NCBI GenBank assembly: GCA_000004985.1
Contig: GG738886.1
Origin: Naegleria gruberi
Taxonomy: Eukaryota
Length of the DNA: 64,000 nucleotides
Strand: one strand, 5' to 3'
Position 1 is the first letter of the stretch. Each line of letters begins with the position of its first letter. The position numbers were made by a program, and so were the translations under genes. The notes beneath the pieces were generated by a model. The model was given only the letters and a program-made list of their open reading frames with translations. It was not told the DNA's origin and ran no database searches. Below are positions 14,040-63,787 of this stretch, piece by piece.

Positions 14040-15103
14040 TGAATGTCTCTTACTTATTACATTAGTTGTAGGTTGTGGTTCTAAAGGTTGTTGTTGTGCT
14101 GATCAATCTTTCGCAGAGTGTCTTGTTCAATACTCTGATTTGACCTACTCTTTTTAGAGAGTGTATGTACAAAGTCCATTTGATGATGTTCTTCTTGATG
14201 ATTAACACAGTCAGCCGAAGTCATCTTATTAATCTTCTTCTTATTACTAGTATTGTTAAGAATAATATTAAAACTTTTTTGTTTTTAAAATTAAATCTTC
14301 TTGTTCAGGTCTTCTACTACAACACAATAAGAAGGCTTGTTTGCCAATGATGATTTTCTTTTTAATGATGAATTAACCGATGATGAGAACGGAGGCTTTT
14401 TTGTTTTTCAATAATTCATATGGAATATCTGAACGCAAAGTTATCGAATCGTCCAGCTTTTCATCGCGCAATAAAAAACCGCTGCGCTATTATAGAGATT
14501 TTTTTGGATAAATACACCTCAATCAAACATGGCGCCAAAATAAAATGTACCATTTCTGTGGAGATGTCAAAGTCAGTATGATGTGTTCATTGAATTTGGT
14601 ATTGTGAAGGTAAAATGGTTGTTTAAGGAATATAAAGAGAAATGCATGAAATTATTTTAAATTTCAATAATGATAAAAACCTTACTTTATTTCTTTGTAT
14701 TGCTTGTCAAGTTTTGTTTTTTGAAATCTGACCTTCACACACAAAGACCTAATTCATTGGAGAATGAAATTGTAAAATGAGTTTTATCATTCAGTAATAA
14801 AATCCTCTAAAATTGTTAAATAGAAATCCAGAACATGAAAGCGGAGAAAGGTGAGTAAGCCAGTGTGAGAGAATTTAACCTGAACCAATTAATTCATGTC
14901 CTAAATGTATTATTATATTCCAGTGTATCTTCAAATCTCTGAATGTAACCTTACATTGGTAATTGCTATCTCTCTTGCCAATCAAAGAGTTGCCTTGATG
15001 GTCAATTTACTTTCATCCAATTTTCACAATTTCAAACATTTTGAAATGGAAAATATGAAATGGAATCAAAAGGAATTGCAATCAAAAAACCAAATTCAAA
15101 AAA

Positions 15104-16390: not shown

Positions 16391-16726
16391 TAATCTTTGT
16401 TTGGAAGATGGTGATTCCACATACCTTATTGCACAAGAATTTGTGATCGGTTCATTATTTGCTCTGAAATGGATTTTTTAATGAGCTCTATCAATTTGTT
16501 ACTTCTCTGTTATTAGATGGCTTCCTCAATTAACACATATTTCAATAAAGTTGAAGTTATTTATTAGTTAGTCTGTAGTTGAAACTTTTACTGTCTTAAT
16601 TGGTGTTCTCTTTTCTGAATTCTTCCCATTCTCTCAAACTCTTATTCTACAATATTTCTTTTTCTCATCACTTTCATCATCAATTTCTTTATCATTGTCT
16701 TTTCTTTCTCAAGAAAGTTCCCTCTC

Positions 16727-17805: not shown

Positions 17806-17878
17806 TGCCGACACCAGGGATCGAACCAGGGACCTTAAGATCTTCAGTCTTACGCTCTCCCAACTGAGCTATGTCGGC
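17806..17878 (-). tRNA. tRNA-Phe (anticodon GAA).
   Basis: Reverse complement reads GCCGACATAGCTCAGTTGGGAGAGCGTAAGACTGAAGATCTTAAGGTCCCTGGTTCGATCCCTGGTGTCGGCA. It has a 7-bp acceptor stem, a D-arm AGCTCAGTTGGGAGAGC, an anticodon loop CTGAAGA, a TΨC arm GGTTCGATCC, and 73 nt without encoded CCA. Confidence 0.85.
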
Positions 17879-19124: not shown

Positions 19125-20081
19125 TTATTTGAATATCATGATTGCATGTTGGTCTGAGGAGACAACAAATAGCTCACCAGTGAGATGATTAAGGGCAATA
19201 CCTAAAATTTCTGTTGCACCATCCACCAATAAAGAATGTTTAAACAGCAACCCTTGTTTGTTAAATATTTGGACTGTTTGGTTTTGAGAACTAGACACTA
19301 TCAAGTTTTCAGTTTCTTCATCAATAATTATTGAGCAGGGTAATTTAAACTCACCAAAGCTTTCGTCCTGTATCTCTCTAATTTTAGTAAAATTTTCTGT
19401 ACTAACAACGGTAATAGAGTGTCGAGAATGGCTACCAAACATTAAATAATCCCTCCCAATACAAATTGACCATGGTAAATCAATAGCCAATGAAGGACTA
19501 GAATAAATATTTTTAACAAGTTCTCCATTAATTGAATTCAGTACTCGAATAACATTCTCATCAGTATCACAAACATATATCAAGTTATGAGGATGTTGAT
19601 ATCTTACATCAAGGCCATTTGGCCAATTACAATCTTGGTCATTTTCCCATAATTTTTCTGAGCTATCATTAGCAAGTATGTCCTTAATATCGAACTTGAA
19701 AATTGCAGAAGTAATACAAGCGACAATTAAAAAGTCTGTTTTTTCTGTTCGTTCCACAGTGCAACATCGAGGAAATGCGATTGAGAAATTTGAAAGGTGC
19801 ATCTTTGTTTTTAAATCAAATGTTGTAATTCTACTATTGTAATAATCAGTAACTAAAACACAATCATATAAATATGAAATCTTCACCTCGAAAGGATATC
19901 GAAAATCATGTTTTACAGTTTCAATCAGCCTAAAATTCGTACTAAATTCAACTAATTTTTTCCTCATCATTTTCTTCCGTAATTCGCCAAACAATACATG
20001 ATTTAATCTCTCCGAATTAAAATCCTCTACAATCACGACAACATTTTCTGAACGGTTAGTATCACCACCTTCTTGTATCAT
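19125..20081 (-). CDS. Hypothetical protein, 318 aa.
   Basis: Single ORF. It lies divergently, about 115 bp, from the first ATG of the RFWD3-like gene. Confidence 0.4.
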   Translation of the reverse strand: MIQEGGDTNRSENVVVIVEDFNSERLNHVLFGELRKKMMRKKLVEFSTNFRLIETVKHDFRYPFEVKISYLYDCVLVTDYYNSRITTFDLKTKMHLSNFSIAFPRCCTVERTEKTDFLIVACITSAIFKFDIKDILANDSSEKLWENDQDCNWPNGLDVRYQHPHNLIYVCDTDENVIRVLNSINGELVKNIYSSPSLAIDLPWSICIGRDYLMFGSHSRHSITVVSTENFTKIREIQDESFGEFKLPCSIIIDEETENLIVSSSQNQTVQIFNKQGLLFKHSLLVDGATEILGIALNHLTGELFVVSSDQHAIMIFK

Positions 20082-20196
20082 CAGAAGACAATTTTTTTAA
20101 TTAATTTAAATTTAAATTAATTTATTAATAATTTGTTTAATATTTTTGGCGCGAAAGAAGTGTTCGACCATCCACAAGAATTTAGAAAAAAAAGAC
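20082..20196. promoter_or_regulatory. Short AT-rich divergent intergenic region, a candidate bidirectional promoter, between the minus gene starting at 20081 and the RFWD3-like first ATG at 20197.
   Basis: 115 bp with about 90% A+T and quasi-palindromic AATTAATTTAAATTTAAATTAATTTATTAATAATT. Head-to-head gene starts. Confidence 0.3.
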
Positions 20197-22896
20197 ATGA
20201 TGAACCTACACTTTATTCGGAGGGGACTTTCTCCTCATCAGAACCAACAACATACTTCTGGTAGTGCGAGTAATAGCCAACAATCAAATAATAGCAAACA
20301 AACACCAAATAATAGCATGAGTAATACGAGTAATATGAATTATAGTACAAACCAACATTCTAATTCTTCTTCCTCATCTTGTAGGAAGAGAACTTTGGAG
20401 TATAGTATCGATCTGGATGATTTACCTTCTCCTCCATCCTTATTTTCCTCTGCTTCTTTAATAGCCACAATGAATGCAGTTACCATGATGAATACTAATG
20501 AAACTCTAAAACAATCATCACCCGAAGACGATCAAAAAGCTTCAATAGAGAATGTTATCATGTCCGATGATCCAAATGAAGAACAGCAACAAGAAGAAGA
20601 GGAAATAATCATTTCTCAAACTGATGATGAACCAATCCTTAAAACACAATTCCCACCCTTTTCAATAGTAACAAGTTTGAAAAAAAATGATTCATTAGGG
20701 GATAGTGAGAGTGAGGATGATGGAGAATATGAAGATTCTAATGATGAAGATGAATTGAGGGAGTTTTCAATTAAACAAGTCGAACAATCGACTAAGAAGA
20801 GAAAATTAAATATTGTAAATAAGGAGGATAATAGAAAATCGGAACAGTTAGAGGATAATTCAAAACCAATCATGCTCTTGACTCAATTACCTCCAATGTC
20901 AACATGTGAGGCAAAACAAGAAGACATTACTGTAGTGGTAGAACACCCTATTGATGAAGAAGAGTTTCTAAATAATGCAACAGTCCCTCAGGAGAATGAG
21001 ATGATCAAATCTTTGGAGGATAATATTATTGAGGAACTTGCATTTACTCCAGATCAAGAAAATAACATTGAGAATTTATCCCAAATTCCAAAATTGGAAA
21101 ATAATAGGCAATTAGAGGAAGATTTTGATATTCATGTTGACTTACACGAGTTGGATTATGAATTTTCGAATAATACAGAACCAGCCCAAAAACCAGAAGA
21201 ATCAATTCAAGCTAAGAAGGTTCTTGTTGACATTTCCGTTCAAACTGATAACAGTCTCCTTCCAAAACCTGTACAAATTGTAAATAGCGATCCAAATAAT
21301 ATCTGTTCCATTTGCTTAAGTGCATGGAGCAGTACTGGACTACATCAAGTGTGCTGCCTTTCGTGTGGCCATCTTTTTGGTAAGAATTGCATTGAGAAAT
21401 GGTTGAAAAAAAACTCTACATGTCCAAAATGTAAAAAATCTGCAGATAGAAGTCATATTAGATTACTCTATGTGGACAATATTCATGCCATAGATACACA
21501 AAAAGTTGAAGATTTAGAGAGTAGATTGGAAGCAGAAGTTAAAGCACGAAAAGAGCTGGAGGTAATCAAAAATGGTCTCGAATTGAGAATTAAAATGCTT
21601 TTAGAGCAGAAAGGAGGTGAGAATTTTGCAGAGAACCCTTCATCTTCCCCCCCTAACAACAAGGGTGTTCAACACCGTTCAAGCTCAGAATCAGACACCA
21701 ATAAGAGGAAATCATTGATTCAACGATCGTTAGAACTTGCAGAAAGAAAAAAGAAAGAGTTTGATTTAATGAATTCTGAAGAGGAGGAAGTTACAAGAAA
21801 CATTGTCTGTTACAATGGGAAATCAAAAAATCAACAATCCAGAAAAAAGAACACCTATCTATATGGATCGAATGGAGCTAATAAGCTTCTATTCAATACT
21901 CCACTTGAAAATTCTGGCTTGATAGAAATTAGCAACAATCAAGTATTTATATCTTTTGAAAGAAGGGATAAAATGTGTGGATTTTATGTTGCTGGATTGG
22001 AAAGATTAATGAGTAATCCATCCATAATTAATCAGGCAAGGAAAGTAATGCATAATTCACCAATATCAGATATCAAACCACTCTATCTTCTTTCACCCAA
22101 CAATTCTAAAGGTTACTCTATTGAATATATGCAATCTAACCTTATTTTAACTTCCTCACAAGATAAATCAATGAGAATTACTGATCTACGACAAGGAACA
22201 GCGGACTCTATATGTTTTTTCCCTTATCTATCAACCAATAGAGAAGGTTTATCAACATCTATTACTTGTTGTGAATGGAATAGAACCAATTCAAACTATT
22301 GTTTTGCAGGACTATCATCAGGTTCAATTCTATGTTACGATACTAGAAAACCAAGTGAACCTTTTTTAAATACTGGGGATCATTCATGTTCTCCACATAC
22401 AATGTTTCACATACCCAACAAGGGCCTAGTAGTAGGCTCAAATAATTCCATTACCTACTATGATGAAAATCAATATGGTTATACAAAGGGACATAATTTA
22501 TTTAATAAGGAAGTTTCTTCATTCTACTTTAATACTTCAAATGATACCCTTTTATTCACATGCAGGGAATCATCAAAATCATCTCAATTACATATATTCA
22601 CTCTTGAAAGCAATCAACATGTGAATTGTTTAGAGAGTATCAGTATCAATCACAAAGGACCAAAACTAGGAAGGCCATATGTCTCAGATAATGGTCAAAA
22701 CTTTCTTTCCACAATAGCAGTTCCAAAGCCAGATGATTTTTCTGTAGAAATTTGGAAATCTCAAACAGATCAGGACTATTCATTTAAGGGTGATATCAAA
22801 TTACAATCTAGCACTGAAATTATTCAAAGTTGTGCCCTGTCATTTAATAATCTGTTTGTTGTTACAAAAGACAATCTTAGTGCATACTTGGTTTAA
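20146..22896 (+). CDS. RING-finger, coiled-coil and WD40-like E3 ligase with RFWD3-like architecture. The first ATG is at 20197.
   Basis: RING-H2-like CSICLSAWSSTGLHQVCCLSCGHLFGKNCIEKWLKKNSTCPKCK. An acidic S/N-rich N-terminal half. A coiled-coil stretch EDLESRLEAEVKARKELEVIKNGLELRIKML. A C-terminal region with WD-like beta-propeller character. Confidence 0.55.
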   Translation: MARKKCSTIHKNLEKKDMMNLHFIRRGLSPHQNQQHTSGSASNSQQSNNSKQTPNNSMSNTSNMNYSTNQHSNSSSSSCRKRTLEYSIDLDDLPSPPSLFSSASLIATMNAVTMMNTNETLKQSSPEDDQKASIENVIMSDDPNEEQQQEEEEIIISQTDDEPILKTQFPPFSIVTSLKKNDSLGDSESEDDGEYEDSNDEDELREFSIKQVEQSTKKRKLNIVNKEDNRKSEQLEDNSKPIMLLTQLPPMSTCEAKQEDITVVVEHPIDEEEFLNNATVPQENEMIKSLEDNIIEELAFTPDQENNIENLSQIPKLENNRQLEEDFDIHVDLHELDYEFSNNTEPAQKPEESIQAKKVLVDISVQTDNSLLPKPVQIVNSDPNNICSICLSAWSSTGLHQVCCLSCGHLFGKNCIEKWLKKNSTCPKCKKSADRSHIRLLYVDNIHAIDTQKVEDLESRLEAEVKARKELEVIKNGLELRIKMLLEQKGGENFAENPSSSPPNNKGVQHRSSSESDTNKRKSLIQRSLELAERKKKEFDLMNSEEEEVTRNIVCYNGKSKNQQSRKKNTYLYGSNGANKLLFNTPLENSGLIEISNNQVFISFERRDKMCGFYVAGLERLMSNPSIINQARKVMHNSPISDIKPLYLLSPNNSKGYSIEYMQSNLILTSSQDKSMRITDLRQGTADSICFFPYLSTNREGLSTSITCCEWNRTNSNYCFAGLSSGSILCYDTRKPSEPFLNTGDHSCSPHTMFHIPNKGLVVGSNNSITYYDENQYGYTKGHNLFNKEVSSFYFNTSNDTLLFTCRESSKSSQLHIFTLESNQHVNCLESISINHKGPKLGRPYVSDNGQNFLSTIAVPKPDDFSVEIWKSQTDQDYSFKGDIKLQSSTEIIQSCALSFNNLFVVTKDNLSAYLV

Positions 22897-29015: not shown

Positions 29016-29134
29016 GGCTACGGCCATATCACGATGAATGCACCTCATCCCGTCCGATTTGAGAAGTTAAGCATCGTCGAGCCACATCAGTACTGAGGTT
29101 GGAGACAACTTGGGAACCTGTGGTGCTGTAGTCT
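29016..29134 (+). rRNA. 5S ribosomal RNA gene, copy 1, 119 nt.
   Basis: GGCTACGGCCATATCACGATGAATGCACCTCATCCCGTCCGATTTGAGAAGTTAAGCATCGTCGAGCCACATCAGTACTGAGGTTGGAGACAACTTGGGAACCTGTGGTGCTGTAGTCT. It carries canonical 5S helices and a box C-like CCGTCCGAT. A T4 Pol III terminator follows immediately. Confidence 0.9.
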
Positions 29135-30616: not shown

Positions 30617-31075
30617 ATGCAATTATTTGTCAAGACACTCACTGGAAGAACTATCACTTTGGAGGTTGAATCTAATGATTCAATTGAAAACGTGAAAAGA
30701 AAAGTACAAGATAAGGAAGGAATTTCACCAGATCAACAAAGACTCATCTTTGCTGGGAAACAATTGGAAGATGGCAGAACTATTAATGATTACAACATTC
30801 AAAAAGATTCAACTCTTCATTTGGTGTTGAGATTAAGAGGAGGAATGCAACTTTTTGTAAAAACTTTAACTGGAAAGACAATCACTATTGAAATGGAATC
30901 GAATGATACTGTTGAGAATATGAAACAAAAGATATTTGATAAGGAAGGTATTCCTTCAGATCAACAACGATTGATTTATGCCGGTAAGCAATTGGAAGAT
31001 GGAAGAACTATTGGTGATTACAATCTTCAAAAGGATTCAACTGTGCATTTAGTATTGAGATTGAGAGGTGGTTAA
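30617..31075 (+). CDS. Di-ubiquitin: two head-to-tail ubiquitin-fold repeats ending in GG. Both repeats diverge from canonical ubiquitin.
   Basis: [76 protein letters not shown] plus a second repeat. About 11 and 17 substitutions against canonical ubiquitin. K48, K63 and the C-terminal GG are retained. Confidence 0.8.
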
Positions 31076-31300: not shown

Positions 31301-31419
31301 GGCTACGGCCATATCACGATGAATGCACCTCATCCCGTCCGATTTGAGAAGTTAAGCATCGTAGAGCCACATCAGTACTGAGGTTGGAGACAACTTGGGA
31401 ACCTGTGGTGCTGTAGTCT
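31301..31419 (+). rRNA. 5S ribosomal RNA gene, copy 2, 119 nt, with one substitution relative to copy 1.
   Basis: Identical to copy 1 except C>A at GTAGAGCC. About 15 nt upstream and about 30 nt downstream are also conserved between copies. T5 terminator. Confidence 0.9.
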
Positions 31420-36637: not shown

Positions 36638-39600
36638 ATGCCACAAGATAAAAGTGAACTTGACTGTGGTAAAGTACTTACTAATCAGGATAGTGGTGTT
36701 GGGTTTAGCACTATCAATACTAGTCCCCCGCATCAACAGTCGAGCGATTGTATTTCTAACATGAAGGAAAACCTAATTCCGGAGGTGAAGAATAATGATG
36801 AATTATCTGCATCATCTATTACTCTTGCTGTTCCGAACATTGATTGTGGAAGTAATACGACAAAGATGCCAACAACAAGTACTCTCGTTGTGGATGATAT
36901 CATTAAAAATAGGAGGAATATTGATGATAAAAGGTCTCTTGAAAATCGAGGAACGAGAACAGCCAGCCTGTCAATGCCAACAACTAATTATTTATTTCCA
37001 TCATCAAAAAGTAACTTAATTCCAATATTACCAAAAACTAAGGATCAGGAAAAGGAGAAAATGCAGAAAAACAAACTAACTTTTCAAAATTCGAGAAATT
37101 CTCTTTTTCAAAACTCTAACAAAACAACTTACACAAAAGTTGAAATGAACAAACAATCTAACGATAAGAGAGGACAAACGAAAATAGATCACCAACCCAA
37201 AAATCTAGAATTGCCCTCATTAGCATCAATTGTTTTAACACCAAATACTCCTAACTCGGTATCTAATGTCAATATTGAAACAGACGAATCAGAAATTAAC
37301 CCAATACTGGAATCAGTACCATTCTTTATATTTTTAAAAATTGGAATACTCAAGGAAAACTCAGAACCTAAATATTTAGAGGCTTATAGGGCTCTTTCTC
37401 AACAAAATCTATTCTTTATGACCTCTTGGTTTAGGTATTTTGGGATATATTTTGTTTTAGTATTTTTAACAATGTACAAGCTTGTCGGGATGCGAACAAT
37501 CTCTAGCTCTGTACTTTGCAACTTTTGCAGTGGAGGTTTTTAGTAATCTTTATCTGAATTATTTAACATGCTGTAAATCTCCAACTAGGGCAAGGAAGAA
37601 TGTAATTCATTTATGCAGAACAGTTCTGTCAACCTCTTATGGATTCATAATGCAAATGTATTACACTAAGCTATCCATATATATATTGACAATACTCAAA
37701 TTAATAATTTCTTGTCATATTTTTGGAGACCATCTTATCACCTCCTTAATATCTACAGTAATTTTCGTATCTGGTTCGCTTATTCCAATGATGATTTTGG
37801 GGTATCCAATAGAATCTATAGTAAGCAACGGGATAGTAATGACTTCCATAGCCATTATGTGCTTGTTCTTTTCAAAAATATATGCAGAAGAAAAAAGATA
37901 TCATTATAAACAAAGGTTTGCTTACATGCAGGAAAAGTATTTGAGCAATGAGAAAACTCACATGATTGCAAATATTTCACATGAAGCAAGGTATGTATTA
38001 CCAGTATCAGTTCGAATTAATTCAAATTCACATTTTGGAATTGTTTTAATTATTCCTATGTAGAAATCCATTGCATGGTATTATTGGAGCTTCAACAATT
38101 TTGAGACATGATATGGAAAAGAACAGTCATTCAGATAAAAGAAAAAAAAGAGGAAGAAAGAACAGCATTTTACAATCACCTTCTCATTCACCAATGAATG
38201 CAAAGAAAGGATTCTTACATGTTTCAAATGATGATGGACACTATTCGAGTGATTGTGAATCTTCATGTGGAGATTCAACAGCTGAACAACCGTATCTTGA
38301 ATTGGTGAATGATATTTATAATAATGCCAATTTGTTACTTCACATTTTCAGTACTTCACTTCAAATGACAAGTCTCGAAATGGGAAATATCAAATTGAAG
38401 AATGAACCATTCAATTTATTGGACACAATTGAATCAGTAATTTCAGTATTTTATAATATTGCAGCAGACAAGAATGTTTCACTTCACAGTTTTATTAATT
38501 TAAATTCTCTTCCAAACCAAGTGATAGGTGACCACGTTAGAGTTTCTCAAATATTAATGAACTTTGTGTCAAACTCTATCAAATATTCATCTAATGAGCA
38601 AGGAGAGAGTTCAGTAATTCTCAAGTGTGATATTTGTTCAGATGAAGAGCTCAAAAAGTTGAATGTTGAAAAAGAAAAAATAATTGAAATGTTAGACGAT
38701 AAGGAGGACATTGTTTTCGTTAAAATTGATTGTATTGATAATGGAAAAGGAATTGAAAAGGATAATATCAACAAGTTATTTAAAGCATTCCAAACTTTTG
38801 ATTTGAAATCAGCAAGTAACATGGACACAGGTGGAACAGTATTTGATCAATACTATTTGAAATCAATTTCAGGTAATACAAAAGGATCGAATGGAACGAG
38901 TTTACTATTGAGTAACAGAACAGGAGTTGGATTGAATATTAGCAAGCAACTTATTGAGAAGATGAAAGGATCTATTATAGTTAGCAGCGAAATAGGTAAA
39001 GGCACGACAATGTCTGTAATATTTCCTTTAAAGATAGCACCAACTCAATCTGCACAAAATCAAAGACTTGAAGAACTTAGTATAGATTTAGAAGATTTCA
39101 ACGTATTAATTATTGACAATGATGCACTCTTTTTGGATATAATGAAGGACTATGTTGCTCATATTTGTGCTAAAACTACGGTTACCACTGTTATAGACCC
39201 GAAAAGTATTACGGATATTGATGAGTCAAAACCATTGGTAGTAATTTATTCTGAACATCTCCATGCAGAAGTGAAACAAATCCTAAAATTGGTTTCTGTA
39301 GAAAAGATATTGATACCCATTGGATTGAGAGGAAGGACTAGAAAATATGCAACTATGAAGTATATTATCAAACCTGTAAAGGTTGACGATATGATAAGCG
39401 TATTGAACGAAAAACTCGACAAGCAAAAGAAGAAGATTAATTGTCAAAATATTATTACTCCACCTCCAGAGATAAATATCACAACTGATAATGTTCCAAC
39501 TATAGAGGTAGTAATACCAGAACCTGTACCTTCTAAACGAATACTGATAACAGATGATAATTTAATTAACAGAAAAGTGATGGAAAAGATGGTTCGATTG

Positions 39601-39915
39601 TTGGGATTTACTGAAGTTGATTGTGCATCGAATGGATTGGAATGTTTTGAAATGTACAAACAAAAACAATATTCAATCATTTTATTGGACTTGTTGATGC
39701 CAGTCATGTGTGGCAAGCAGAGTGTGAAACATATTCGAGAATTTGAAGAGAGTGAAGGAAGAAAACGAACACCAGTAATTGCCATCACTGCCAACATTTG
39801 GGAATCAGTTGATACTCTCTCACAACTTGGATTTGACTCTGTCATTTACAAACCAATCCTTATTGAAAAATTGAGGGAGGAAGTTGAACGGTTAACGCAA
39901 GAAAGCAACTCATAG
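36638..39915 (+). CDS. Hybrid histidine kinase A. It has a low-complexity N-terminus, a TM region, HisKA, HATPase_c and a C-terminal receiver domain. Exons are 36638..37990 and 38064..39915, with an apparent frameshift near 37478.
   Basis: H-box IANISHEAR|NPLHGIIGAS is split by the intron at 37991..38063. N-box LMNFVSNSIKY. G1 DNGKGI. G2 GTGVGLNISKQL...GKGTT. REC domain ILITDDNLINRK...LLDLLMP...YKP. It is colinear with the downstream paralog except for a frame change between MYK in frame 2 and TSLSGCEQ in frame 0. Confidence 0.65.
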
Positions 39916-40026
39916 CCCAAATATCAACAACCTACATAACAGTACCACATTTTTGGATGGTTTTTTTGGTGGATATAATTGTTTTTATTAAGGCCAAATA
40001 ATTCGCAAAATTAATATTTAAAAAAA

Positions 40027-43000
40027 ATGAATACATTGAAACCCCACAACGTGACTGGAACGAATTGTACCACGAGTTCTATCGGATCTTCATCCACAGT
40101 TGGAGACTTGGGAAATAGCAGTCTACAACAAATAAATCAAAAGTTTATTAGGGAAGATACAAAACCTACTCCTTCATTATCGGAAATCACTAATAATAAC
40201 AGAAACACAAATAATTTATTATCACCTTCTTCAACAACAAGTCCAACAAGTAGCAGAAGCATTCCAAAAACTAAATCTCCAATATCAAGATGGGATTCAG
40301 TACCTATTATCTCTTCGACAACTAACGTTTCAATAACAAATACTGAAGATATCTCTCCAAAGAGAAGTGAAAAACTCTCCCCAATAATTGTCCCAGAAAC
40401 AGCTGGTGTGTTTGAGGTGAGTTCAACACCCAGAAAGTCGTCCAGAATTAATGAACCACCACCCTCAACAAGAAACTCAATCATCCTCACACCAACAAAC
40501 TCCAAATTCATTTCTCAAACAAGCATACCTTTGGATGTGGACGATTCGAATGATAATAGTAATGAACAGATTCTTTCCTCAATTTCACTTTTTCAATTTA
40601 TCCAACTAATCATGCAAAAAAATCCTAACCCTAAATTTAGAGAAGCCCATCGACAAATTTCACAGCAAAATATTTATTCAATTACCAAATGGTTTAGCGT
40701 TTTGACTTTATATTTTTGTTTACTATTTATTGGAATGTACATAACATCAGAAAGTTCAGCATCTCCTATTGTATTTTTTGGCCTTTTTCCATTTGAAGTA
40801 GCCAACAATATGATATGCAATTATATAACTTGCTGTAAAGCTAGATCGGTTTATGCGAAAGCATCCATTCATATCTATAGAGCTGTTATCATTGCAACAC
40901 TTGCATTTATTTGGCAATATTTTTACCACGATATGCCTTTCTACCTGCTTACAATGATAAAACAAATCATTGCTTGTCACGTTTATGGAGAGGAAATTCT
41001 AATATCTTCAACTGCGTCTATAATCATTAGTACAGGAGCAATCTATCCACTCTATGTTCTGAATCAAGGAACAAAGAAGGTTATTGAGGTTTTCTTTTTA
41101 ATGGTGTCTGCTTCTGTGATAAGTTTGTTCTTTGCCTATGTTTATGCAGAAGAGAAGAGAAATCATTACAAACAAAGGTTTGCTTACATGCAGGAAAAGT
41201 ATTTGAGTAATGAGAAAACTCACATGATTGCAAATATTTCACACGAAGCAAGGTATGTAGTACAAGCATCATTTTCAATTAACTCCCATTTTTATCATTC
41301 CTATGTAGAAATCCACTGCATGGTATTATTGGAGCTTCAACAATTTTGAGACATGATATGGAAAAAAACAGTCATCCAGATAAAAGAAAAAAAAGAGGAA
41401 GAAAGAACAGCATTTTACAATCACCTTCTCATTCACCAATGAATGCAAAGAATGGATTCTTACATGTTTCAAATGATGATGGACATTATTCGAGTGATTG
41501 TGAATCTTCATGTGGAGATTCAACAGCTGAACAACCATATCTTGAATTGGTGAATGATATTTATAACAATGCCAATTTGTTACTTCACATTTTCAGTACT
41601 TCACTTCAAATGACAAGTCTTGAAATGGGAAATATCAAATTGAAGAATGAACCATTCAATTTATTGGACACAATTGAATCAGTAATTTCAGTATTTTATA
41701 ATATTGCAGCAGACAAGAATGTTTCACTTCACAGTTTTATTAATTTAAATTCTCTTCCAAACCTAGTATTAGGTGATCATGTAAGGTAAGTGAAATATCA
41801 ATGAGCTTCTAATCACGTCAGTAGAGTTTCTCAAATACTTATGAACTTCATATCCAATTCTATCAAATATTCATCTTCTGAATCTGGAGAGAGCTCAGTA
41901 ATTCTCAAGTGTGATATTTGTTCAGATGAAGAGCTCACATCACTGAACGTAGAGAAGGATAAAATAATAGAAATGCTTGATGATAAGGAGGACATTGTTT
42001 TCGTTAAAATTGATTGTATTGATAATGGAAAAGGAATTGAAAAGGATAATATCGGTAGCTTATTCAAAGCATTCCAAATTTTTGATCTCAAGAATAGTGA
42101 AAATATAACGGATACAAGTGGAACTGTATTTGACCAATACTATTTGAAATCAATTTCAGGTAATACAAAAGGATCGAATGGAACAAGTTACCTATTGAGT
42201 AACAGAACAGGAGTTGGATTGAATATTAGCAAGCAACTTATTGAGAAGATGAAAGGGTGCATTATAGTTAGCAGTGAGGTCGGAAAAGGAACAACCATGT
42301 CAGTGATATTCCCATTCAAAAAGAAAATTGACAATCCAAGTGTTGAACTTGTTATGCAATGTAAAGCATCGCTCAACACTTTCAAAGAGTTTGGAATCTT
42401 TTCATGTCATTATTATTGATAGTGAGACCCACTTTTTGAATCTTTTGGAGGATTATTTACATTTATTGAATCCTAATATAACTATTTTCAAATATGTGAA
42501 CACAGCTAGTATTAAGGAAATTGATTGTTCAAAATCATTGATTGTAATTTACTCTGAAAATCTTCACTATGAAGTCAAACACTTATTCAAGCAGTCAGTG
42601 ATGGAAAAAATTCTAATTCCAATAGGACATCGAGGAAAGATGAGAAGATTCACAAACATGAAATATGTAATCAAACCTCTTAAGGTTGATGAGTTGGTAA
42701 ATGTGTTGAATGAAAAAATTGAGAAACACAAAAAGAGAGTAAGCCATCAAACTACAGATTTTCCACCAGAAATTAAGGTCACAACAGAGAATATTGATTC
42801 TGTGCAGTCTTCTTCAAATAATATGCCTCTAAATGTTGAACCTCCTAGGGTTGAACCAATCACAGATTCCAAAAGAGTTTTAATAACAGATGATAATTTA
42901 ATTAACAGAAAAGTGATGGAAAAGATGGTTCGATTGTTGGGATTTACTGAAGTTGATTGTGCATCGAATGGATTGGAATGTTTTGAAATGTACAAACAAA

Positions 43001-43248
43001 AACAATATTCAATCATTTTATTGGACTTGTTGATGCCAGTCATGTGTGGCAAACAAAGTGTGAAACATATTCGAGAATTTGAAGAGAGTGAAGGAAGAAA
43101 ACGAACACCAGTAATTGCCATCACTGCCAACATTTGGGAATCAGTTGATACTCTCTCACAACTTGGATTTGATTCGGTCATTTACAAACCCATCCTTATT
43201 GAAAAATTGAGGGAGGAAATTGACAGGCTCCCAACCAACACCTCATAG
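40027..43248 (+). CDS. Hybrid histidine kinase B, the tandem paralog of A. Exons are 40027..41252, 41309..41785, 41825..42350 and 42388..43248.
   Basis: Same domain order and motifs as A. Intron 1 (41253..41308, GTATGT..TAG) is shared with A. Intron 2 (41786..41824, 39 nt, GTAAGT..CTAAT..TAG) and intron 3 (42351..42387, 37 nt, GTTATG..CTCAAC..AAG) are absent from A, and both restore colinearity and frame exactly. Confidence 0.75.
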
Positions 43249-43362: not shown

Positions 43363-43818
43363 ATGAGCGATTTAGTAAGAATCTTCAAGTCAGATATTGT
43401 CAATGCTCCAATCGACCAAGTGTGGCAGTTGGTGAGAAGTTTTAATGGTCTTCCACAATGGGCAGCTGGTATTTCAGCAAGTATTATCGAAAATGGTAGA
43501 GAAGATAATTCCATTGGTTGTGTCCGATCATTATCTTTGGCTGGTGGTGAAGAACCAATCCGAGAGGAATTATTATCCTTTGATGAGAAGAATCACACCT
43601 ATTCATACACTATCCTTGATGGACCACTCCCATTCAAGAATTACAAACACTATTATTCAACTATTACTTTGCGTGAAATTACAGAAAGCAACACAACATT
43701 CATTGAGTGGAAATCGGAATTTTTCTGTCCTTTGGGTGAACATGATAGTGCCAAACCAATTGTGGAAGGAGTTTATGTTGGAGGAATTAATGCATTGAAA
43801 AAGAAATTCTCTCAATAA
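43363..43818 (+). CDS. Bet v1-like / SRPBCC (polyketide-cyclase-type) ligand-binding domain protein of 151 aa.
   Basis: Single ORF. VNAPIDQVWQLVRSFNGLPQWAAGI...TFIEWKSEF is consistent with the SRPBCC helix-grip fold pattern. The assignment is by pattern only. Confidence 0.45.
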   Translation: MSDLVRIFKSDIVNAPIDQVWQLVRSFNGLPQWAAGISASIIENGREDNSIGCVRSLSLAGGEEPIREELLSFDEKNHTYSYTILDGPLPFKNYKHYYSTITLREITESNTTFIEWKSEFFCPLGEHDSAKPIVEGVYVGGINALKKKFSQ

Positions 43819-46849: not shown

Positions 46850-48554
46850 TGCTCTCCACTGATCAGGCAAGACAATATCAAGCAGCACAGAAGAATACAA
46901 AGGCTGCCAATAGTAGTAAAGTCAATAACAATATTAGTACTACAACAACAAGCAGTACAAGGAGTAATTCATCAGCTTCACCTTTGGATGCTAGTAATTA
47001 TTTTAACAACACAACGGGAAGAGAAAAGTTGGATATCACAAAGGAGGAAATAGATAAGATTGAAAAATGTATGAAGGACCCTGAGTTTTTAAAGTTGTTT
47101 GAGGAATATGTGAATGAAATTTCCGATCCTAATGCATTGAGGGAAACTGACATGTATATTAAACAATTGGAGAAGGAGGGAACAAGTTTACCCAAGTCAA
47201 TAGTCATTCCGAAGGCTGTAAGTATGAACGTGATGATAGAATTATGTTAATAGATGTAGTGTTTTTGTATTCAATGTGGAACTGAAGATAAGAAGGGGAA
47301 GAACTATATTGTAAATGTTTGTTCGAGTGATAGTGTTGAAATTCACAAGGAAGAGAAATCTAAAAAAGGCGAAAAATGTAAGTTGTGACAATTCAATTAA
47401 GGTCTTATCCAAAACTTTCAGCTGGTACCCAATTTAGTGTTCCATTGGTCGTCGGAAATCCAAAAGTTGAGGAAAAACAAGTCGTTCTCGATGTCATTTT
47501 TAACACAAAAACTTGTGAAAAGGCTGATAAGGATGTTTTGTTTAAGGATTTTATCTGTGGAATGGCTTTGGACTATGTGGAGAAGAAATGTAATGTTAAA
47601 TTGAAAAAGCAATATTATACAATGATGCTTGGAGTTAAAAGTGTTGGAGAGCCATCAGCTCTGACAGTTCAAGCCCCTGGTCAAAAAACTGATAAGAACG
47701 ATCCATTAGCTCCTCAAAGCGTGCTTAAGGATATTCAGGAAAGTAGAGAAAAGGCCAATCAAATCTACTCTACAGAACAAAAGGAACTGAAATTGACCAA
47801 AGAAGACCCAACTCCTAAGAAATCAAACCTCATTCAAGAAGTTAATGATCCAATAACTCCAAAGTATGAAATTGTATACAGGAATAGTTTTGATATGTCA
47901 GAATATACATATTCAACTCCAACAGCTACAAATAGAGCAAAACCAGCTGAGATTGGAATTAGAATATTCCTTCCAATGTTGGATAGTATATCAGGAGTGG
48001 ACCTGGATGTGTCTGAAAACTTTTTGAAATTGGATTGTACACATCCTCAAAAGTATCATTTGGATCTTCATTTGCCGTACAGTGTGTTGAGTGACAAGGT
48101 TTCCGCCAAATTTGAAAAGAAAACCAGAACTTTGAAAGTCAACTTAATTGTCACACCTGACCCAGTGCAGAAAGTTGTCTTTGATGAGATTCCAAAAGAA
48201 CAGGAAGAGGAAGAGAAAGTTACAGTTGTGGAAGAATTAAACAAGGTTGAAGAAGTTGCAGAAACTGTCACAGAAATCCCTCAAACAGAATTTAAACTTT
48301 CTAAAGCGCCATCTCCAAATCAATTCTCTTCGTTCGTTCAAAAGATTCCTCAAGAAATTGATATTGCTGCAACTGAATTGAAACCTGTAAATATCCATGC
48401 CGAACCACCAAAAACCCAAATTGTAAATAGAGTTGAAAGGAATGATACCACAACAAAGAAGAGTGTATCATTTGCTCCACCAGTCAGCGAAGAAGTGAAA
48501 CCAGTCCAACAAGCAAGCGAGTTCAAAAATAAGTATTTATTTGAACTGGACTAG
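46850..48554 (+). CDS. Kintoun/DNAAF2-like PIH1-family protein with a C-terminal CS domain. Three exons at approximately 46850..47218, 47252..47376 and 47422..48554.
   Basis: KDPEFLKLFEEYVNEISDPNALRETDMYIKQLEKEG closely parallels the Kintoun N-terminus DPEFRRMFSQYAEELTDPENRRRYEAEI..LERERG. KGKNYIVNVCSS matches the PIH1 core, and LKLDCTHPQKYHLDLHLPYSVLSDKVSAKFEKKTRTLKVNL resembles a CS domain. Introns have GTAAGT donors. Exact junctions are approximate. Confidence 0.6.
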
Positions 48555-57390: not shown

Positions 57391-59844
57391 ATGCACAAAC
57401 AGATATCTTTATTCTTGTTAGTTTTATTCTTGCTGGTTTCTTCAGCATCATTCAAACATACCCATTTCACAAAGGACATGATTGACTCTCTCAATCAAGA
57501 TCCATCTGTCAAATGGGAAGCTGCAAATTATGACCAATTTGCAGGTAAATCATTTGCTGAATTGAGAAAATTATTAGGTGGTAAGAGAGGTGAAGAAAGC
57601 TCGAGTGAAGAAGCAAGATATAATACCAGAGATGTTAAATCGACTGTTGCCATTCCTGATACTTTTGATTCTAGAACTAAATGGCCACAATGTATTCATG
57701 GTATTAGAAATCAAGGTGTAAGTAATATTCATCCATAGCATGTTGTTTAATATTGTAAAAAAAGCAATGTGGATCATGCTGGGCTTTCGCAAGTAAGTAT
57801 TAAGTTTTCCTCTGTTGTTGCTCATCTTTGACAACAATTATTACAACAAAATATGATGTGAATATTGACATGAATAACATGAAAATAATAGCTACTGGTG
57901 TTTTCTCTGATCGTTTGTGTATTACTACTAACAACGTTTCAAATGTTGTTATCAGTCCTGAAGTAAGTTAATGTAAGCTAACAATAACATAACATTCGTC
58001 CAGTTTCTTATTGAATGCGACAAGACCAGTTTTGCATGTCAAGGCGGTTATGGTTATTATTCATGGAAATTCTTCATGAATACTGGTATCCCATTAGAAT
58101 CCTGTGTTCCATACACTAAAGATTCCCTTGTTTATGGTAACACCACCAACGCTCAATGTAGATCAACTTGTACTGATGGTAGTCCACTTAAATTATACAA
58201 GGCTGCTAGTGCTTATTATATTTACTCTCCAATTACCAATTATCAAACTGAAATTATGACTAATGGACCAGTTGAAGCTGATTTTGATGTGTAAGTTTTC
58301 TAATTTTAGTAATGTGAAATTTTAATTTTTTTTAGATATTCTGATTTTTATTCATATAAATCTGGTATTTATCAAAAGACAGCAGGAAGTACCTATGTTG
58401 GTGGACATGCTGTTAAGGTTCTTGGATGGGCTTCTGATTCTAATGGAACTCCTTATTGGATTGCTCAAAATCAGGTAAGTTTCGAATAGAAATTAACAAT
58501 TAATAGAAATAATTTAAAACACAATAATAGTGGGGAACATCATGGGGTATGGGAGGCTATGTATGTTTTTAATTTGATTTGAAAAATTAATTAACTTTTT
58601 CTAGTTGTAAGTAATTTGTAATTTACTTTTTTGTAAATTTATTATCAACCTTAACAGTTATATTTATAGAGGAAATTCTACTTTGAATTGTAAATTTGAT
58701 AATTACATGATTGCTGGAACTGTCTCACCACCAACATGTTATGGTAAAGCTCAAAGTGATTCTTCAGTTTGTAATGGACATGGTCAATGTGTTGGACCAG
58801 ATACTTGTTCATGCTCAAGTGGATGGGGTGGCACTTATTGTAATATTACCAGTTGTAATGGAATTGTTTTGACTGATTCATCAGTTTGTAGTGGTCATGG
58901 CCAATGTGTTTCTGCTGAAAATTGTGTTTGTAATAGGTAGGTTTTTTCACTTGTTGTGTGATTTTTTTAACACAATTGGTTGAAGTGGTTGGAGTGGAAC
59001 TTATTGTGCTGAAACTACCTGTAATGGTATTTCATCTGCCAATTCATCTGTCTGTAGTGGACATGGTACATGTACTACCAAGGATACTTGTACATGTAAG
59101 ACTGGTTATGGAGATCAATATTGTCAATCATTCATTTGTTATGGATTGACTGGTTCCAATGCTGCCGTTTGTTCTGGACATGGTACATGTTCTGCTTATA
59201 ATACTTGTAAATGTAATACTGGATACTCTGGTTCTCAATGTCAAAACTATACCTGTAATGCCATTGCCCAAAATAATGCCAATGTCTGTTCAGGACATGG
59301 TTCTTGTGTTGATTACAATACTTGTAAATGTTCAGGTGGATACACAGGTACTTATTGCTCACAAGTTGCTTGTAATGGAATTCTTCCAACAGATTCATCT
59401 GTTTGTAGTGGCCGTGGTAAATGTGTTGGTCCAAACAATTGCACATGTACCAACTCAACTCAGTATGGAGGTGAATTCTGTCAAGTTCCAAAATGTGGTG
59501 GAATTTTGGCAACAGATTCTTCAGTTTGTGGTGGAAAGACCAATTATGTTTGCTCTGGTGTAAATACTTGTACATGTAAGACTGGATATACTGGAGCTAA
59601 TTGTAACTCATTCTCATGTTTTGGAATTGATTCCAACTCAACAAGTGTCTGTGCAGGAAGCGGAAAGTGTGTTGCATTGGATACTTGTCAATGCACTGAT
59701 GGAACTTCAGGCAATTGTACTTCCTCAACTAGTACAGATTCCAGCACAAGACAATCACATGCCTCTAATCAATATGGCCAAACCATGTGGATCCAAATTG
59801 TATTGTGTACTGTCTTGTTATGGATTGGAGCTATTGTTTTTTAA
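57391..59844 (+). CDS. Cathepsin-B-like papain-family (C1) cysteine protease. It has a signal peptide, at least six short exons for the protease, about eight tenascin-type EGF-like Cys repeats, a Ser/Thr stalk and a C-terminal hydrophobic GPI-signal/TM tail. One junction, 58561..58657, is unresolved.
   Basis: Signal MHKQISLFLLVLFLLVSSASF. Protease exons: 57391..57717; 57765..57792 encoding QCGSCWAFA; 57892..57962; 58004..58290 encoding GGYGYYSWKFF; 58336..58474 encoding GGHAVKVLGW...YWIAQNQ; 58531..58560 encoding WGTSWGMGGY. Then YIYRGNSTLNCKFDNYMIAG from 58658 onward, repeats of CxGHGxC(x5)CxCxxGYxGxxC, an intron at 58939..58988, and an end at MWIQIVLCTVLLWIGAIVF*. Confidence 0.55.
58690..59720 (+). 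repeat. Coding tandem array of about eight copies of a unit of roughly 96 bp (about 32 aa) of EGF-like modules.
   Basis: Recurrent module T-C-N-G-I-x-x-T-D-S-S-V-C-S-G-H-G-x-C-V-x(5)-C-x-C-x-x-G-[YW]-x-G-x-x-C. Nucleotide-level periodicity is visible, for example repeated gtttgtagtggncatggtnaatgtgtt. Confidence 0.6.
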
Positions 59845-60211: not shown

Positions 60212-62089
60212 TTAAAAATCATTACACAATTTCAATATTTCCTTATCATTTCTCAAATCAATGGATGCATATTTCAGTGCACTCTTATTTTGTTTGACTG
60301 CAAATGAAACTATTCCTCTATCACTTCTGAGTTTTAAACACATTTCACGTAACAGATTGCCATCTCTTTTCACAACTCGAATCACAAATACTCTATCTGA
60401 GACCTTTAATTTACCAGCACTGTAGAATGCATTAATAGCATCAGTTTTTAACGCTTCCATCAAAATCTCTCTATCTATTTGATGTTTTCTTGGAAAATTT
60501 GGCAAATAATTCCCAGATTGTTTGACTAGTTTCTGAAAGCAAAATAGTCTGTCATTAATCAATCTTTTAGATATCTGACTAAAATTCAACATGACGTTTC
60601 AGCAGCTTTGAGAACAATTTGTTCATCATCCCAAAACTCTGCTGTGCAAGAATTGATTGCATCTCCATCTTGTGTGACTGCAGCCAAAACTATTTCTCTA
60701 TCTGTTTGAAATTGTTCACCAACATAATACAATATCTCACCACATCTTGTTACAGCTTGTAATACAAATTCTCTGTCTTGTTTAAATTCATTTGGGATTG
60801 CATTCATTGCTTCGTACAGATTAAAACATCCTGAGGATATTTTAATTGATTCCAATAATACCTCTCTGTCGTGTGTGAATTGATCTGGAATATTCTCCAA
60901 AGCAAAACCAGTCTTTGCAAATGATTGGATGAATTCAATGTCATTTCTCAATCTATCAGAAATATATGTAATGGCCAAACCAGAAGATTTGAGTGCCAAC
61001 TCAGCAATTTCCTTGTCATCTCTCAATTCAGTTGATGCAAATTGGAAACAGGACCAATTTTTCATAACAAGCATTTTCACAAATTCCTTATCATTTTTCA
61101 ATTCATCAGATGCGTGTTGAAAAGCTTGTGGATTTTGTTGAATAGCTTCCATAACAATCTCTCTATCATTTCTCAATTCCTTACACGCATATTCTAGTGC
61201 TTTCACACCGTCCAAATTTGATATTGTGAGCAGAAACTCTCTATCATTCGTAAATGCCCTACTTGCACTGTTAATTCTGGCAAGAGATTTTGAAAATGCT
61301 TTAAAAATCACATCTCTATCATTTCTCAATAATTGGGATGATTGAAAATATGCATTTGGCTTTGATTCTAGAGCTAGTAAGACAATTTCCTTATTATTTT
61401 GCAATTCTTTGGACGCAAACTCTAGGGCATCACCATTTTCTTGTACAGCAGTTCTAACTATTTCAATATCATTTCTAAATGTTTCAGATACAAATTTAAG
61501 AATTGGTCCCCAAGTACTAACAGCTGTCATTACAATTTCCCTGTTTCTTTTCAATTCTTCAGATGCGTACGAAAGAAAATGACCCTTATGTTGCACAGAA
61601 GTTTTTACAATTTCAAAATCATTTCTCAATTCTTCTGAGGCACATCTGATGCTTCCATTTTCCTTGACAGCTGCCATGACAATTTCTCTATCATTTCTGA
61701 AAACATCATCCACATAATTGAGTGTCTCAAGACCACTATACTCTGTTGTAGTCAAAACAAACGATCTATCCTTCCACAATCCAAATTTTCTAGCCAAAAT
61801 ATCAAATTTATCACAAGGCAAATCGAATATTTTGTCATGAATAAAAGTTCGATCTCTAATCAATCAATATTGGAAAATTAATTGGTTGATTTTCATTGTT
61901 AAATTCTTCTCCATGATCAAAAAACTCCCAAACAGAATCATCACTTCTCCCGAAACAATATTCAAGTATTGGTTTTAAAATGGTGTCGTGTTTGTCATTG
62001 GGTGGAATGTCTGCAATTTTTGTGGAGAGTAATTGGGAAGAGAGGGACAAATCTAAAAAACACTGATGGTTATTCTTCATCATTGGCAT
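60212..62089 (-). CDS. DUF4116-like repeat protein with an N-terminal F-box-like exon. Exon 1 is about 62089..61930, followed by an intron of about 69 nt, then exon 2 from about 61859 down to 60586. A further frame break at 60586..60592 continues into a 126-aa repeat-containing ORF.
   Basis: About nine repeats of [FL]xNDxEIVxxAVxxNGxALxYAS. The proposed intron GTTTTTTGATC...GATTGATTAG joins ...SDDSVWE to DRTFIHDKIF in frame. The ORF at 60212..60592 carries the same repeat but sits in a different frame, overlapping by 7 nt. Confidence 0.45.
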
Positions 62090-62581: not shown

Positions 62582-63787
62582 ATGATGACAATAGAAATGA
62601 CCGATAATATTGAAATTGGAAAAGTTGTTGAATTGGATTATAATGATCTTGTTAATGAAGTTGATTTGAGTGAAAAGATTGAAGAAGCCTATGGTCCTGA
62701 AGGTTTGGGTTTGTTGGTCGTTTCCAATGTTCCAAAAGTTTTGGAATTGAGAGAAACATTGTTGCCACTTGCTCACAAGTTTGCAATGCTTCCAGATGAA
62801 TCTAAAGAAAAGTACGAACACAAGGGATCTAATTATTCATTTGGTTGGTCATATGGCAAGGAATCTTTCAATGGAAAGGTGAGTAATTTTAAATTATCGG
62901 ATCATGAATTTTGTGTTTTTTAAAATTGTTTCGGAATTAATTTTCACATCAGACTGATGTCTTCAAGGGAAGCTACTATGCCAATCCTGAAGTTGATGTA
63001 CCAACTGAAGATAAGGAAATTCAACAAAAGTATCCATTCTACTGCACACCAAATATTTGGCCAAAGGAAGATTTGCCAGAATTGGAATTTGCCTTCAAGA
63101 ATATGGGTCAACTTATTGTTTCCGTTGGTCACCTTATTGCCAAGCAATGTGATAGTTACATTCAAAAGAAATGTCCAACCTGTCAACCAAACAAGCTCTA
63201 TAATATTATCAGCCAAAGCAAGAATACTAAATCAAGACTCCTCTATTATTTCCCAAGATCTCAAGAAGATGTCAATGCTGATGAAAATGTTGAAAGTGAT
63301 GATGGTTGGTGTGGACTTCACTTGGATCACGGTTCTTTGACCGTAAGTAGTAGCATTAGTATTTCAGTATAATGATTCTAATATTCATAATAATAATAAT
63401 CATCATCAATAGGGTTTAACTTCTGCCATGTACTTTAGAGATGGACAAGTTGTTCAAAATGACGATCCAAAGGCTGGACTTTACATTAAGGGAAGAAAAG
63501 GAAATTACATTAAGGCCACCTATAGACCAGACCAATTGGCTTACCAAATTGGTGAAAGTGCCCAAATTCACAGTGGTGGTTTATTGCAAGCCACTCCTCA
63601 TTTGGTTCGTGGTCCAAGATCTGTTGGTATTGCCAGAGCTACTCTTGCCAACTTTATGCAACCTGCTTACAATGACATGATGGACGTTCCAGCTGGAAAG
63701 ACTGTTGCTGATTGTAAGATTAAGCATATTGAAGAAGGAATGACATTCCACGATTTCTCTGAAAAGAAGTTCAAGGAATATTATTAA
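62582..63787 (+). CDS. 2-oxoglutarate/Fe(II)-dependent oxygenase (IPNS-like family) in three exons: 62582..62880, about 62950..63345 and about 63412..63787.
   Basis: WCGLHLDHGSLT|GLTSAMYFRD followed by LQATPHLVRG gives the HxD...H facial triad pattern (compare GAHTDYGSLTILFQD). Introns are GTGAGT..ATCAG and GTAAGT..ATCAATAG. Confidence 0.6.

Follow-up and report, generated by a model that had tools for sequence, protein, structure and literature searches.

The 64,000-nucleotide (nt) stretch of Naegleria gruberi contig GG738886.1 analysed here, hereafter called the window, has a guanine plus cytosine (G+C) content of ~33%, and the 41 Mb genome of strain NEG-M has a G+C content of 33% (PMC8296547). 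The window contains two adjacent plus-strand genes for hybrid histidine kinases, gene A and its paralog gene B, and their coordinates, together with those of the introns and the segments compared below, are listed in Table 1. As already proposed in a preliminary description of this locus, which was made from the sequence alone, each of the two genes codes for HisKA, HATPase_c and Response_reg domains; in our analysis all of these scored above the Pfam gathering scores. The HisKA domain (PF00512) reached 31.0 and 31.4 bits in the A and B proteins, respectively (cut-off 26.9), and the H-box SHEARNPLHG is present in both, although the profile is matched by the first helix only, since an insertion of ~60 residues comes next. 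The HATPase_c domain (PF02518) scored 51-60 bits (cut-off 26.4), with the full profile (1-110) covered and the motifs MNFxSNSIKYS, DNGKGI and GVGLNIS readable in the alignment. The receiver (PF00072, Response_reg) scored 62 bits (cut-off 30.2), and its motifs ITDDN, LLDLLMP and YKPI are conserved with the homologs of Naegleria lovaniensis. According to the sequence alignment, the catalytic motifs are all intact in A and B, including the H-box histidine, the N, G1 and G2 boxes, and the receiver aspartate. With a HisKA domain, a HATPase_c domain and a C-terminal receiver, A and B are thus hybrid histidine kinases for which phosphotransfer activity is predicted.

Table 1. Coordinates of the two histidine kinase genes, of the segments compared between them, and of predicted short introns in neighbouring genes. 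A slash marks a splice junction or the position of an intron. dS, synonymous divergence; ORF, open reading frame. The bounds of the dS segments differ slightly from those of the identity tracts.
Feature	Position	Strand	Remarks
Gene A, hybrid histidine kinase, NAEGRDRAFT_51156 / XP_002674047.1	36638-39915	+	ORFs, gene model, Pfam
Gene A, exon 1	36638-37990	+	
Gene A, frame disruption	37470-37543	+	+1 shift; frame 2 ORF ends with TAG at 37541-37543; frame 0 open from 37470
Gene A, intron 1	37991-38063	+	73 nt; AAG/GTATGT...TAG; H-box codon SHEAR/NPLH, phase 2
Gene A, exon 2	38064-39915	+	
Gene A, predicted site of intron 2 loss	38540/38541	+	GDHVR/VSQ, phase 2
Gene B, paralogous hybrid histidine kinase	40027-43248	+	gene model, Pfam
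Gene B, exons	40027-41252, 41309-41785, 41825-42350	+	
Gene B, last exon	42388-43248	+	if the 37-nt segment is removed
Gene B, intron 1	41253-41308	+	56 nt; AAG/GTATGT...TAG; same H-box position as in A
Gene B, intron 2 (predicted)	41786-41824	+	39 nt; AAG/GTAAGT...GTAG; in-frame TAA at 41787-41789
Gene B, disputed 37-nt segment	42351-42387	+	CTT/GTTATG...CAAAG; weak B-specific intron or frameshifted linker
N-terminus	A 36638-37299, aligned B	+	identity 32-55%; dS 3.1 (saturated)
Transmembrane region	A 37300-37862, aligned B	+	identity 33-63%; dS 2.0 (saturated)
T1, older tract, end of exon 1	A 37878-37990, B 41140-41252	+	identity 92.9%; dS about 0.44
T2, whole, putative recent conversion tract	A 38044-38517, B 41289-41762	+	identity 97.9%
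T2, exon part	A 38064-38517, B 41309-41762	+	identity 98.2% (8/454 mismatches); dS 0.068
Intermediate block, second part of ATPase domain	A 38541-39032, B 41825-42319	+	identity 86-88%; dS 0.58
Linker	A 39011-39546, aligned B	+	identity 28-77%; dS 2.2 (saturated)
Receiver tract, putative recent conversion	A 39547-39887, B 42883-43223	+	identity 98.2% (6/341 mismatches); dS 0.081
Predicted short introns, neighbouring genes	47214-47259, 47378-47421, 5025-5068, 63343-63412	+	GTAAGT donors
Predicted short introns, neighbouring genes	2527-2491, 1267-1228, 325-283	-	GTAAGT donors

In each copy, the kinase domains are preceded by a low-complexity N-terminus, and six hydrophobic helices per protein were counted by eye from the sequence. 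A Pfam scan gave no match in the transmembrane region or in the linker that leads from the ATPase domain to the receiver. N. gruberi has been reported to possess 24 histidine kinases that fall into three groups (Kabbara et al. 2019, PMC6324907), most of which contain multiple hydrophobic helices but lack a known sensor domain (PMC6324907). A and B resemble the membrane-bound hybrid kinases of this organism, both in the order of their parts (transmembrane helices, HisKA, HATPase_c, C-terminal receiver) and in having a sensor region without a recognisable Pfam domain. Gene B is probably absent from the 24 listed kinases since it appears to be missing from the annotated protein set, and we found nothing specific on either gene in the literature.

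Two segments of these proteins showed further features. The ~60-residue insertion between the HisKA helices (38110-38290 in A and 41355-41535 in B) is rich in Ser, Lys and Arg and has a counterpart at about 11500-11660 of the N. lovaniensis locus (L001). It carries a basic cluster, KRKKRGRK (KHKRKSRRRS in N. lovaniensis), that resembles a nuclear localisation signal. The linker that joins the ATPase domain to the receiver (39069-39440 in A and 42388-42742 in B) contains the receiver-like pattern VLIIDND ... VVIYSE ... IKPVKVDD, which suggests a degenerate second receiver, although Pfam finds none there even at an expectation value (E) of 10.

The annotated N. gruberi protein XP_002674047.1 (P0001), encoded on a 358,576-nt scaffold, matches the window exons of gene A residue for residue, which places the window in the NEG-M reference genome. 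However, its gene model treats 37435-38063 (629 nt), which includes the whole transmembrane region, as an intron. Apparently, the model skips the transmembrane sensor to dodge a frameshift, and the annotation is wrong. For gene B, the homology search yielded no matching annotated N. gruberi protein, the N. gruberi matches being gene A and an A-like allele, NAEGRDRAFT_76511 (P0002), which is located on a separate 11.9-kb scaffold and whose model skips the same transmembrane region. The matches included no N. gruberi protein derived from a transcript.

When the identity between A and B was plotted in sliding windows, the pattern was mosaic and not uniform. In agreement with the preliminary description, the H-box/ATPase core and the receiver are nearly identical (98.2% each), whereas the N-terminal, transmembrane and linker parts have diverged to 35-63% nucleotide identity with saturated synonymous sites. 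Two elements of the mosaic had been missed, a third tract (T1) and an intermediate tier in the ATPase domain. The near-identity starts 113 nt upstream of the intron in the H-box, and T2 spans the dimerisation/phosphotransfer domain together with the beginning of the ATPase domain. The 3' edge of T2 is sharp, with 0 mismatches in the last 141 nt and 6 in the 23 nt that separate this edge from the intron-loss site. Along the pair, synonymous divergence varies more than 25-fold and falls into at least two age classes, and in the receiver segment 39547-39870 the codon differences comprise 5 synonymous and 0 nonsynonymous ones. To exclude protein-level constraint, we also compared only those codons that encode one amino acid in both copies. 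Such same-residue codons differed in 16/281 cases (5.7%) in the three high-identity tracts, compared to 89/186 (48%) outside these tracts (Fisher p = 5e-27). The second half of the ATPase domain (33/142 differing) was distinct from both other classes (p = 5e-7 and 6e-6). This is homogenisation of at least two ages on a much older background. The proposal that gene conversion has acted between the tandem duplicates is thus supported, by heterogeneous synonymous divergence with at least two age classes.

The syntenic locus of N. lovaniensis contains one histidine kinase gene, C9374_002814 (P0003), versus two in the window, and in both species the kinase locus is flanked by a phospholipase D-like gene upstream and by RGS and PIH1 genes downstream. 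In every segment, the unconverted ones included, A and B resemble each other more than either resembles C9374_002814. In the transmembrane region, the identity between A and B is 35%, versus 24% and 18% with C9374_002814, and in the linker it is 45%, versus 31% and 27%. A tandem duplication specific to the N. gruberi lineage would be the simplest history. Neither an N. fowleri ortholog nor one from a further Naegleria species was retrieved in our homology searches; the one seeded with the N. lovaniensis ortholog returned only N. lovaniensis paralogs, and a metagenome scan gave only distant bacterial kinases.

The C9374_002814 gene could be reconstructed exactly, with two 59-nt introns that start with GTAAGT and are located at SHEAR/NPLH and GDHVK/ISQ, both in phase 2. 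The first of these corresponds to the predicted intron 1, which is common to A, B and the N. lovaniensis ortholog and had been overlooked in the preliminary description. The second matches intron 2 of gene B, which lies at the same codon and in the same phase (GDHVR/VSQ). Gene A reads GDHVRVSQ without a gap relative to spliced B, and its coding sequence is colinear across this site. Given that intron 2 and an intron of the ortholog agree in codon and phase, the view that intron 2 is ancestral and was precisely lost by copy A is well supported by the comparison, with splicing in B being predicted. This splicing is indirectly supported by the perfect donor and by the TAA that the segment contains in frame, as well as by its conserved position and by purifying selection further downstream. 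Two distant paralogs from N. lovaniensis (P0004 and P0076) have one intron each, at other positions, and are uninformative on polarity. The 39-nt segment described earlier in B, which has canonical GT..AG ends, is indeed absent from A, and what had been described as gain or loss can now be polarised as a loss in A. The statement that copy A is continuous coding sequence also applies to both intron sites, but not to the transmembrane region, which contains a +1 frameshift.

Taken as a whole, the locus is best explained by a duplication, repeated conversion between A and B, and the loss of intron 2 from A, a reading to which we assign a probability of roughly 80%. The ancestral gene would have contained a first intron in the H-box and a second at GDHV(R/K)/(V/I)SQ, and a tandem duplication in N. 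gruberi would have turned this one gene into two genes for six-helix membrane hybrid histidine kinases. Copy A would have lost the second intron exactly, and recombination with a complementary DNA (cDNA) copy of its own transcript is a plausible route. The sensor side, i.e. the disordered N-terminus and the transmembrane bundle, and the linker before the receiver may then have diverged freely, while the phosphotransfer core and the receiver would have been re-homogenised at least twice by conversion between the copies, with an older round giving a synonymous divergence of about 0.4-0.6 and a recent round one of about 0.07. We infer that this conversion was repeated, short-tract and non-reciprocal. 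A single unequal crossover is excluded because an alternating pattern of diverged and identical segments is beyond its reach. The four ends of the recent tracts adjoin indel differences: intron 1 differs by a 17-nt indel, intron 2 is present in only one copy, the stretch that precedes the receiver is rich in indels, and the 3' end has diverged. Conversion is sensitive to heterology, and such heterology may have stopped the tracts, in which case the intron 2 difference would persist beside a recently converted tract.

Intron 1 is identical between A and B at 45/56 positions (80%), apart from the 17-nt indel, compared to 93-98% identity in the flanking exons. This divergence exceeds that of the synonymous sites of T2 (11/56 versus 6/92, p = 0.03), but not that of T1 (p = 0.34). 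Exon-only conversion through an RNA intermediate was considered and dropped; it is not needed since intron 1 fits the older neutral divergence of T1, and T2 begins within the last 20 nt of the intron. The A-like allele was also considered as evidence for recombination, as one of its tract sites agrees with A and another with B, but this is uninformative because one new mutation in the reference A copy explains the mixed states too.

The second intron ascribed to copy B, the 37-nt segment in the linker, was more problematic. This segment starts with GT and ends with AG, and its removal restores the reading frame, as had been described, but the splice signals, the chance expectation and the fit to homologous linkers do not support splicing. 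It could be a genuine spliced intron that is specific to B, either gained after the duplication or ancestral, the ancestral variant requiring two losses, one in A, where a single 3'-biased cDNA event would have removed it along with intron 2, and an independent one in N. lovaniensis. Consistent with an intron, its removal joins GAACTT/AGT as in A, and the nucleotide alignment gaps A by about 30-37 nt at this place. The segment is also absent from the ortholog, neither of whose two introns is in the linker, and from the two N. lovaniensis paralogs. Its size is unremarkable since the window has predicted introns with GTAAGT or GTATGT donors of 37, 40, 43, 44, 44, 46 and 70 nt, introns of 37-46 nt being normal in this genome, and the AAAG acceptor occurs elsewhere. 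Downstream, the B frame is open for 287 codons, with a ratio of nonsynonymous to synonymous divergence (dN/dS) of about 0.17 in the linker and the 0 nonsynonymous and 5 synonymous differences of the receiver, which means that B must be translated through the receiver. However, besides splicing, an assembly error or a very recent lesion would account for this just as well.

Several results argue against splicing of the 37-nt segment. Its donor, CTT/GTTATG, matches the local consensus only at GT and +4, whereas GTAAGT or GTATGT donors were found in 13/13 other introns, i.e. in 10/10 clear ones in the window and in 3/3 from N. lovaniensis, and intron-poor genomes generally have strict donor signals (PMC3488318). 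The GT..AG ends carry no weight at this junction because 20 frame-restoring GT..AG pairs exist there, as expected by chance. When 1588 frame-restoring deletions were ranked by their homology to the linkers of A and C9374_002814, removal of the 37 nt came 806th, with a score of 147 versus 182 for the best one, and single-base deletions scored 173-177. The best-ranked models keep TLSK, frame-1 residues that come from the last 12 nt of the segment. The spliced linker of B would have 19 residues, which is shorter than that of A (27) and of the ortholog (35), versus 31 residues for unspliced B with a 1-nt correction. Moreover, gene A shows a plain frameshift at this locus in the assembly. Homology thus appears to favour a small frameshift at least as much as a 37-nt intron, and we consider true splicing of this segment possible but doubtful. 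By parsimony the segment remains unpolarised, as loss of intron 2 in A plus a gain in B amounts to two events, like the alternative. The picture of a clean case of intron gain or loss therefore holds for one supported loss, in A, but not beyond it, since the 37-nt segment is doubtful and both copies have a frame problem in the reference sequence.

With 3 mismatches allowed, no other copy of the 37-nt segment was found in the window, nor did the segment show a tandem-duplication signature. A 9-bp inverted repeat pairs the upstream exon (42338-42346) with the segment (42374-42382), but the predicted stability of the resulting hairpin was not significant (z = -1.6). It is conceivable, but on balance rather unlikely, that the segment is a nascent spliceosomal intron with weak signals, acquired after the duplication in a length-tolerant linker and spliced enough to keep the receiver under selection. 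If so, this locus of an intron-poor protist would hold one loss and one de novo gain side by side, with conversion tracts that end at an intron boundary preserving the difference between the copies. Nothing specific on Naegleria splice-site statistics was found in the literature.

The frame problems raise the question whether one or both copies are decaying pseudogenes, with the conserved tracts kept only by conversion from the other copy. The +1 frameshift in A is unambiguous, and no intron solution spares transmembrane helix 1; a candidate such as 37435-37480 (46 nt, TAG/GTATTT) was rejected because it would delete this helix, which aligns as coding with both B and the ortholog. The cause is most likely one extra base around 37481-37488, a stretch that includes the GGG run at 37486-37488, as deleting one base there makes the A protein exactly as long as B in this region and aligns it with B and the N. 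lovaniensis ortholog. That the gene models of A and of the A-like allele both skip the transmembrane region suggests a disruption on both scaffolds, and gene B lacks any annotated model. The failure to retrieve an N. fowleri ortholog would mean that the gene may be dispensable, and environmental sensors might be under relaxed selection in the axenic strain NEG-M. In contrast, the recent tracts combined contain 11 synonymous versus 3 nonsynonymous differences since the last conversion, where about 22 nonsynonymous ones would be expected if either copy were neutral (P = 7e-7, Poisson; P = 4e-4, binomial), indicating that both copies were under purifying selection, and functional, until very recently. 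Apart from the disruptions mentioned, there are no further stops or frameshifts in about 3 kb of either gene, and the histidine, nucleotide-binding and aspartate motifs listed above are intact. We therefore consider it unlikely that either copy is a pseudogene. The frame disruptions would rather represent very recent lesions, errors in the draft assembly or, in the case of B, a segment that is removed by splicing, lesions of this age being plausible for an axenic clone that has been in culture for long.

An explanation without any conversion, in which the mosaic would result from stronger purifying selection on the catalytic domain and the receiver, or from the merging of paralog reads during assembly, seems very improbable. 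It is true that the near-identical tracts fall into the domains under the strongest functional constraint, and that the reference, a draft assembled from whole-genome shotgun reads, has haplotypes on separate scaffolds, such as the 11.9-kb one with the A-like copy. However, protein-level selection does not remove synonymous differences (5.7% versus 48% of same-residue codons), the second half of the ATPase domain is equally conserved as protein (89% identity) yet has a dS of 0.58, and each tract keeps 6-10 copy-specific differences and, at 341-474 nt with unique flanks, should be bridgeable by normal reads.

Some points weigh against the scenario of duplication, repeated conversion and intron loss. 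That indels adjoin the tract ends has been observed four times, which does not amount to a test. With one outgroup gene, the case for conversion would rest on synonymous heterogeneity and not on conflicting trees, and the dS values above 2 are saturated and no real estimates. Finally, two frame disruptions in adjacent genes that are otherwise constrained form an awkward coincidence; both are located in unconverted parts, in the transmembrane region of A and, with the 37-nt segment, in the linker of B.

Classic examples of interlocus gene conversion are the globin, opsin and heat-shock gene pairs. Like these, A and B are old duplicates that have discrete tracts of near-zero synonymous divergence with sharp boundaries and of several ages, and their tracts are located in the most constrained domains while the sensor side diverges. 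In contrast to the known cases, A and B have not been described before and B is unannotated, every end of a tract lies next to an indel or to an intron that only one copy has, and an orthologous pair from a second species, which could give conflicting trees, is lacking. In N. gruberi itself, the copies of the flagellar alpha-tubulin family are exceptionally similar, and gene conversion is at least mentioned in the report on this family (PMC2115128).

Precise intron loss is usually attributed to recombination with reverse-transcribed mRNA and is 3'-biased (PMC3488318). In line with this, the removal in A is exact and leaves the flanking codons unchanged, A lost the more 3' of the ancestral introns and kept the 5' one, and the genome is intron-poor with strict GTAAGT/GTATGT donors. 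What differs from known intron losses is that the comparison here is between paralogs in one genome, polarised by a single ortholog, that the loss site coincides with the end of a conversion tract, and that cDNA recombination and genomic deletion are not distinguishable as mechanisms of the loss in A.

The A/B pair documents concerted evolution in the two-component signalling repertoire of Naegleria, and offers one intron loss between young paralogs that is clean and polarised. The analysis further identifies a histidine kinase gene of N. gruberi, gene B, without an annotated protein in the searched set, next to a gene whose model is wrong. The 37-nt segment is a cautionary case: where GT..AG pairs that restore the frame are expected by chance, such ends do not speak for an intron. 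The locus is thus a well-resolved new instance of known processes together with an annotation correction, and leaves our understanding of gene conversion or intron loss unchanged.

Several other features were observed around the kinase genes and elsewhere in the window. A small ORF similar to Polyketide_cyc2 (43363-43818) follows gene B, with a Pfam score of 23.6 bits, which is below the cut-off of 27.4. The N. lovaniensis locus (L001) contains, at 13627-16585 and 19982-21298, genes for an acetyltransferase, a 713-residue protein and an RCC1-like protein that are absent from the window. For the two short introns of the PIH1-like gene, N. lovaniensis has introns of about 50 nt in corresponding positions. 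Units of a 45-nt family with 64-80% identity, several of them about 75 nt apart, were found at 60674-61708 and 5522-6715 in long minus-strand open frames that probably code for a helical-repeat protein; some adjacent frames near these units have no strong-donor intron to join them. At 58737-59459 (+), six repeat copies with a spacing of mostly 117 nt code for Cys-rich units of the form C..G....C.GHG.C....C.C, which look like an EGF-like repeat protein. A tRNA-Phe (GAA) gene was identified at 17806-17878 (-) by both ARAGORN and Rfam. Two 5S ribosomal RNA genes, at 29016-29134 and 31301-31419 (+), are located 2.3 kb apart, score 105-107 bits with Rfam and are 94% identical over 162 nt. Between them lies an ORF (30617-31075) with two tandem ubiquitin-like repeats that share only 77% nucleotide identity.

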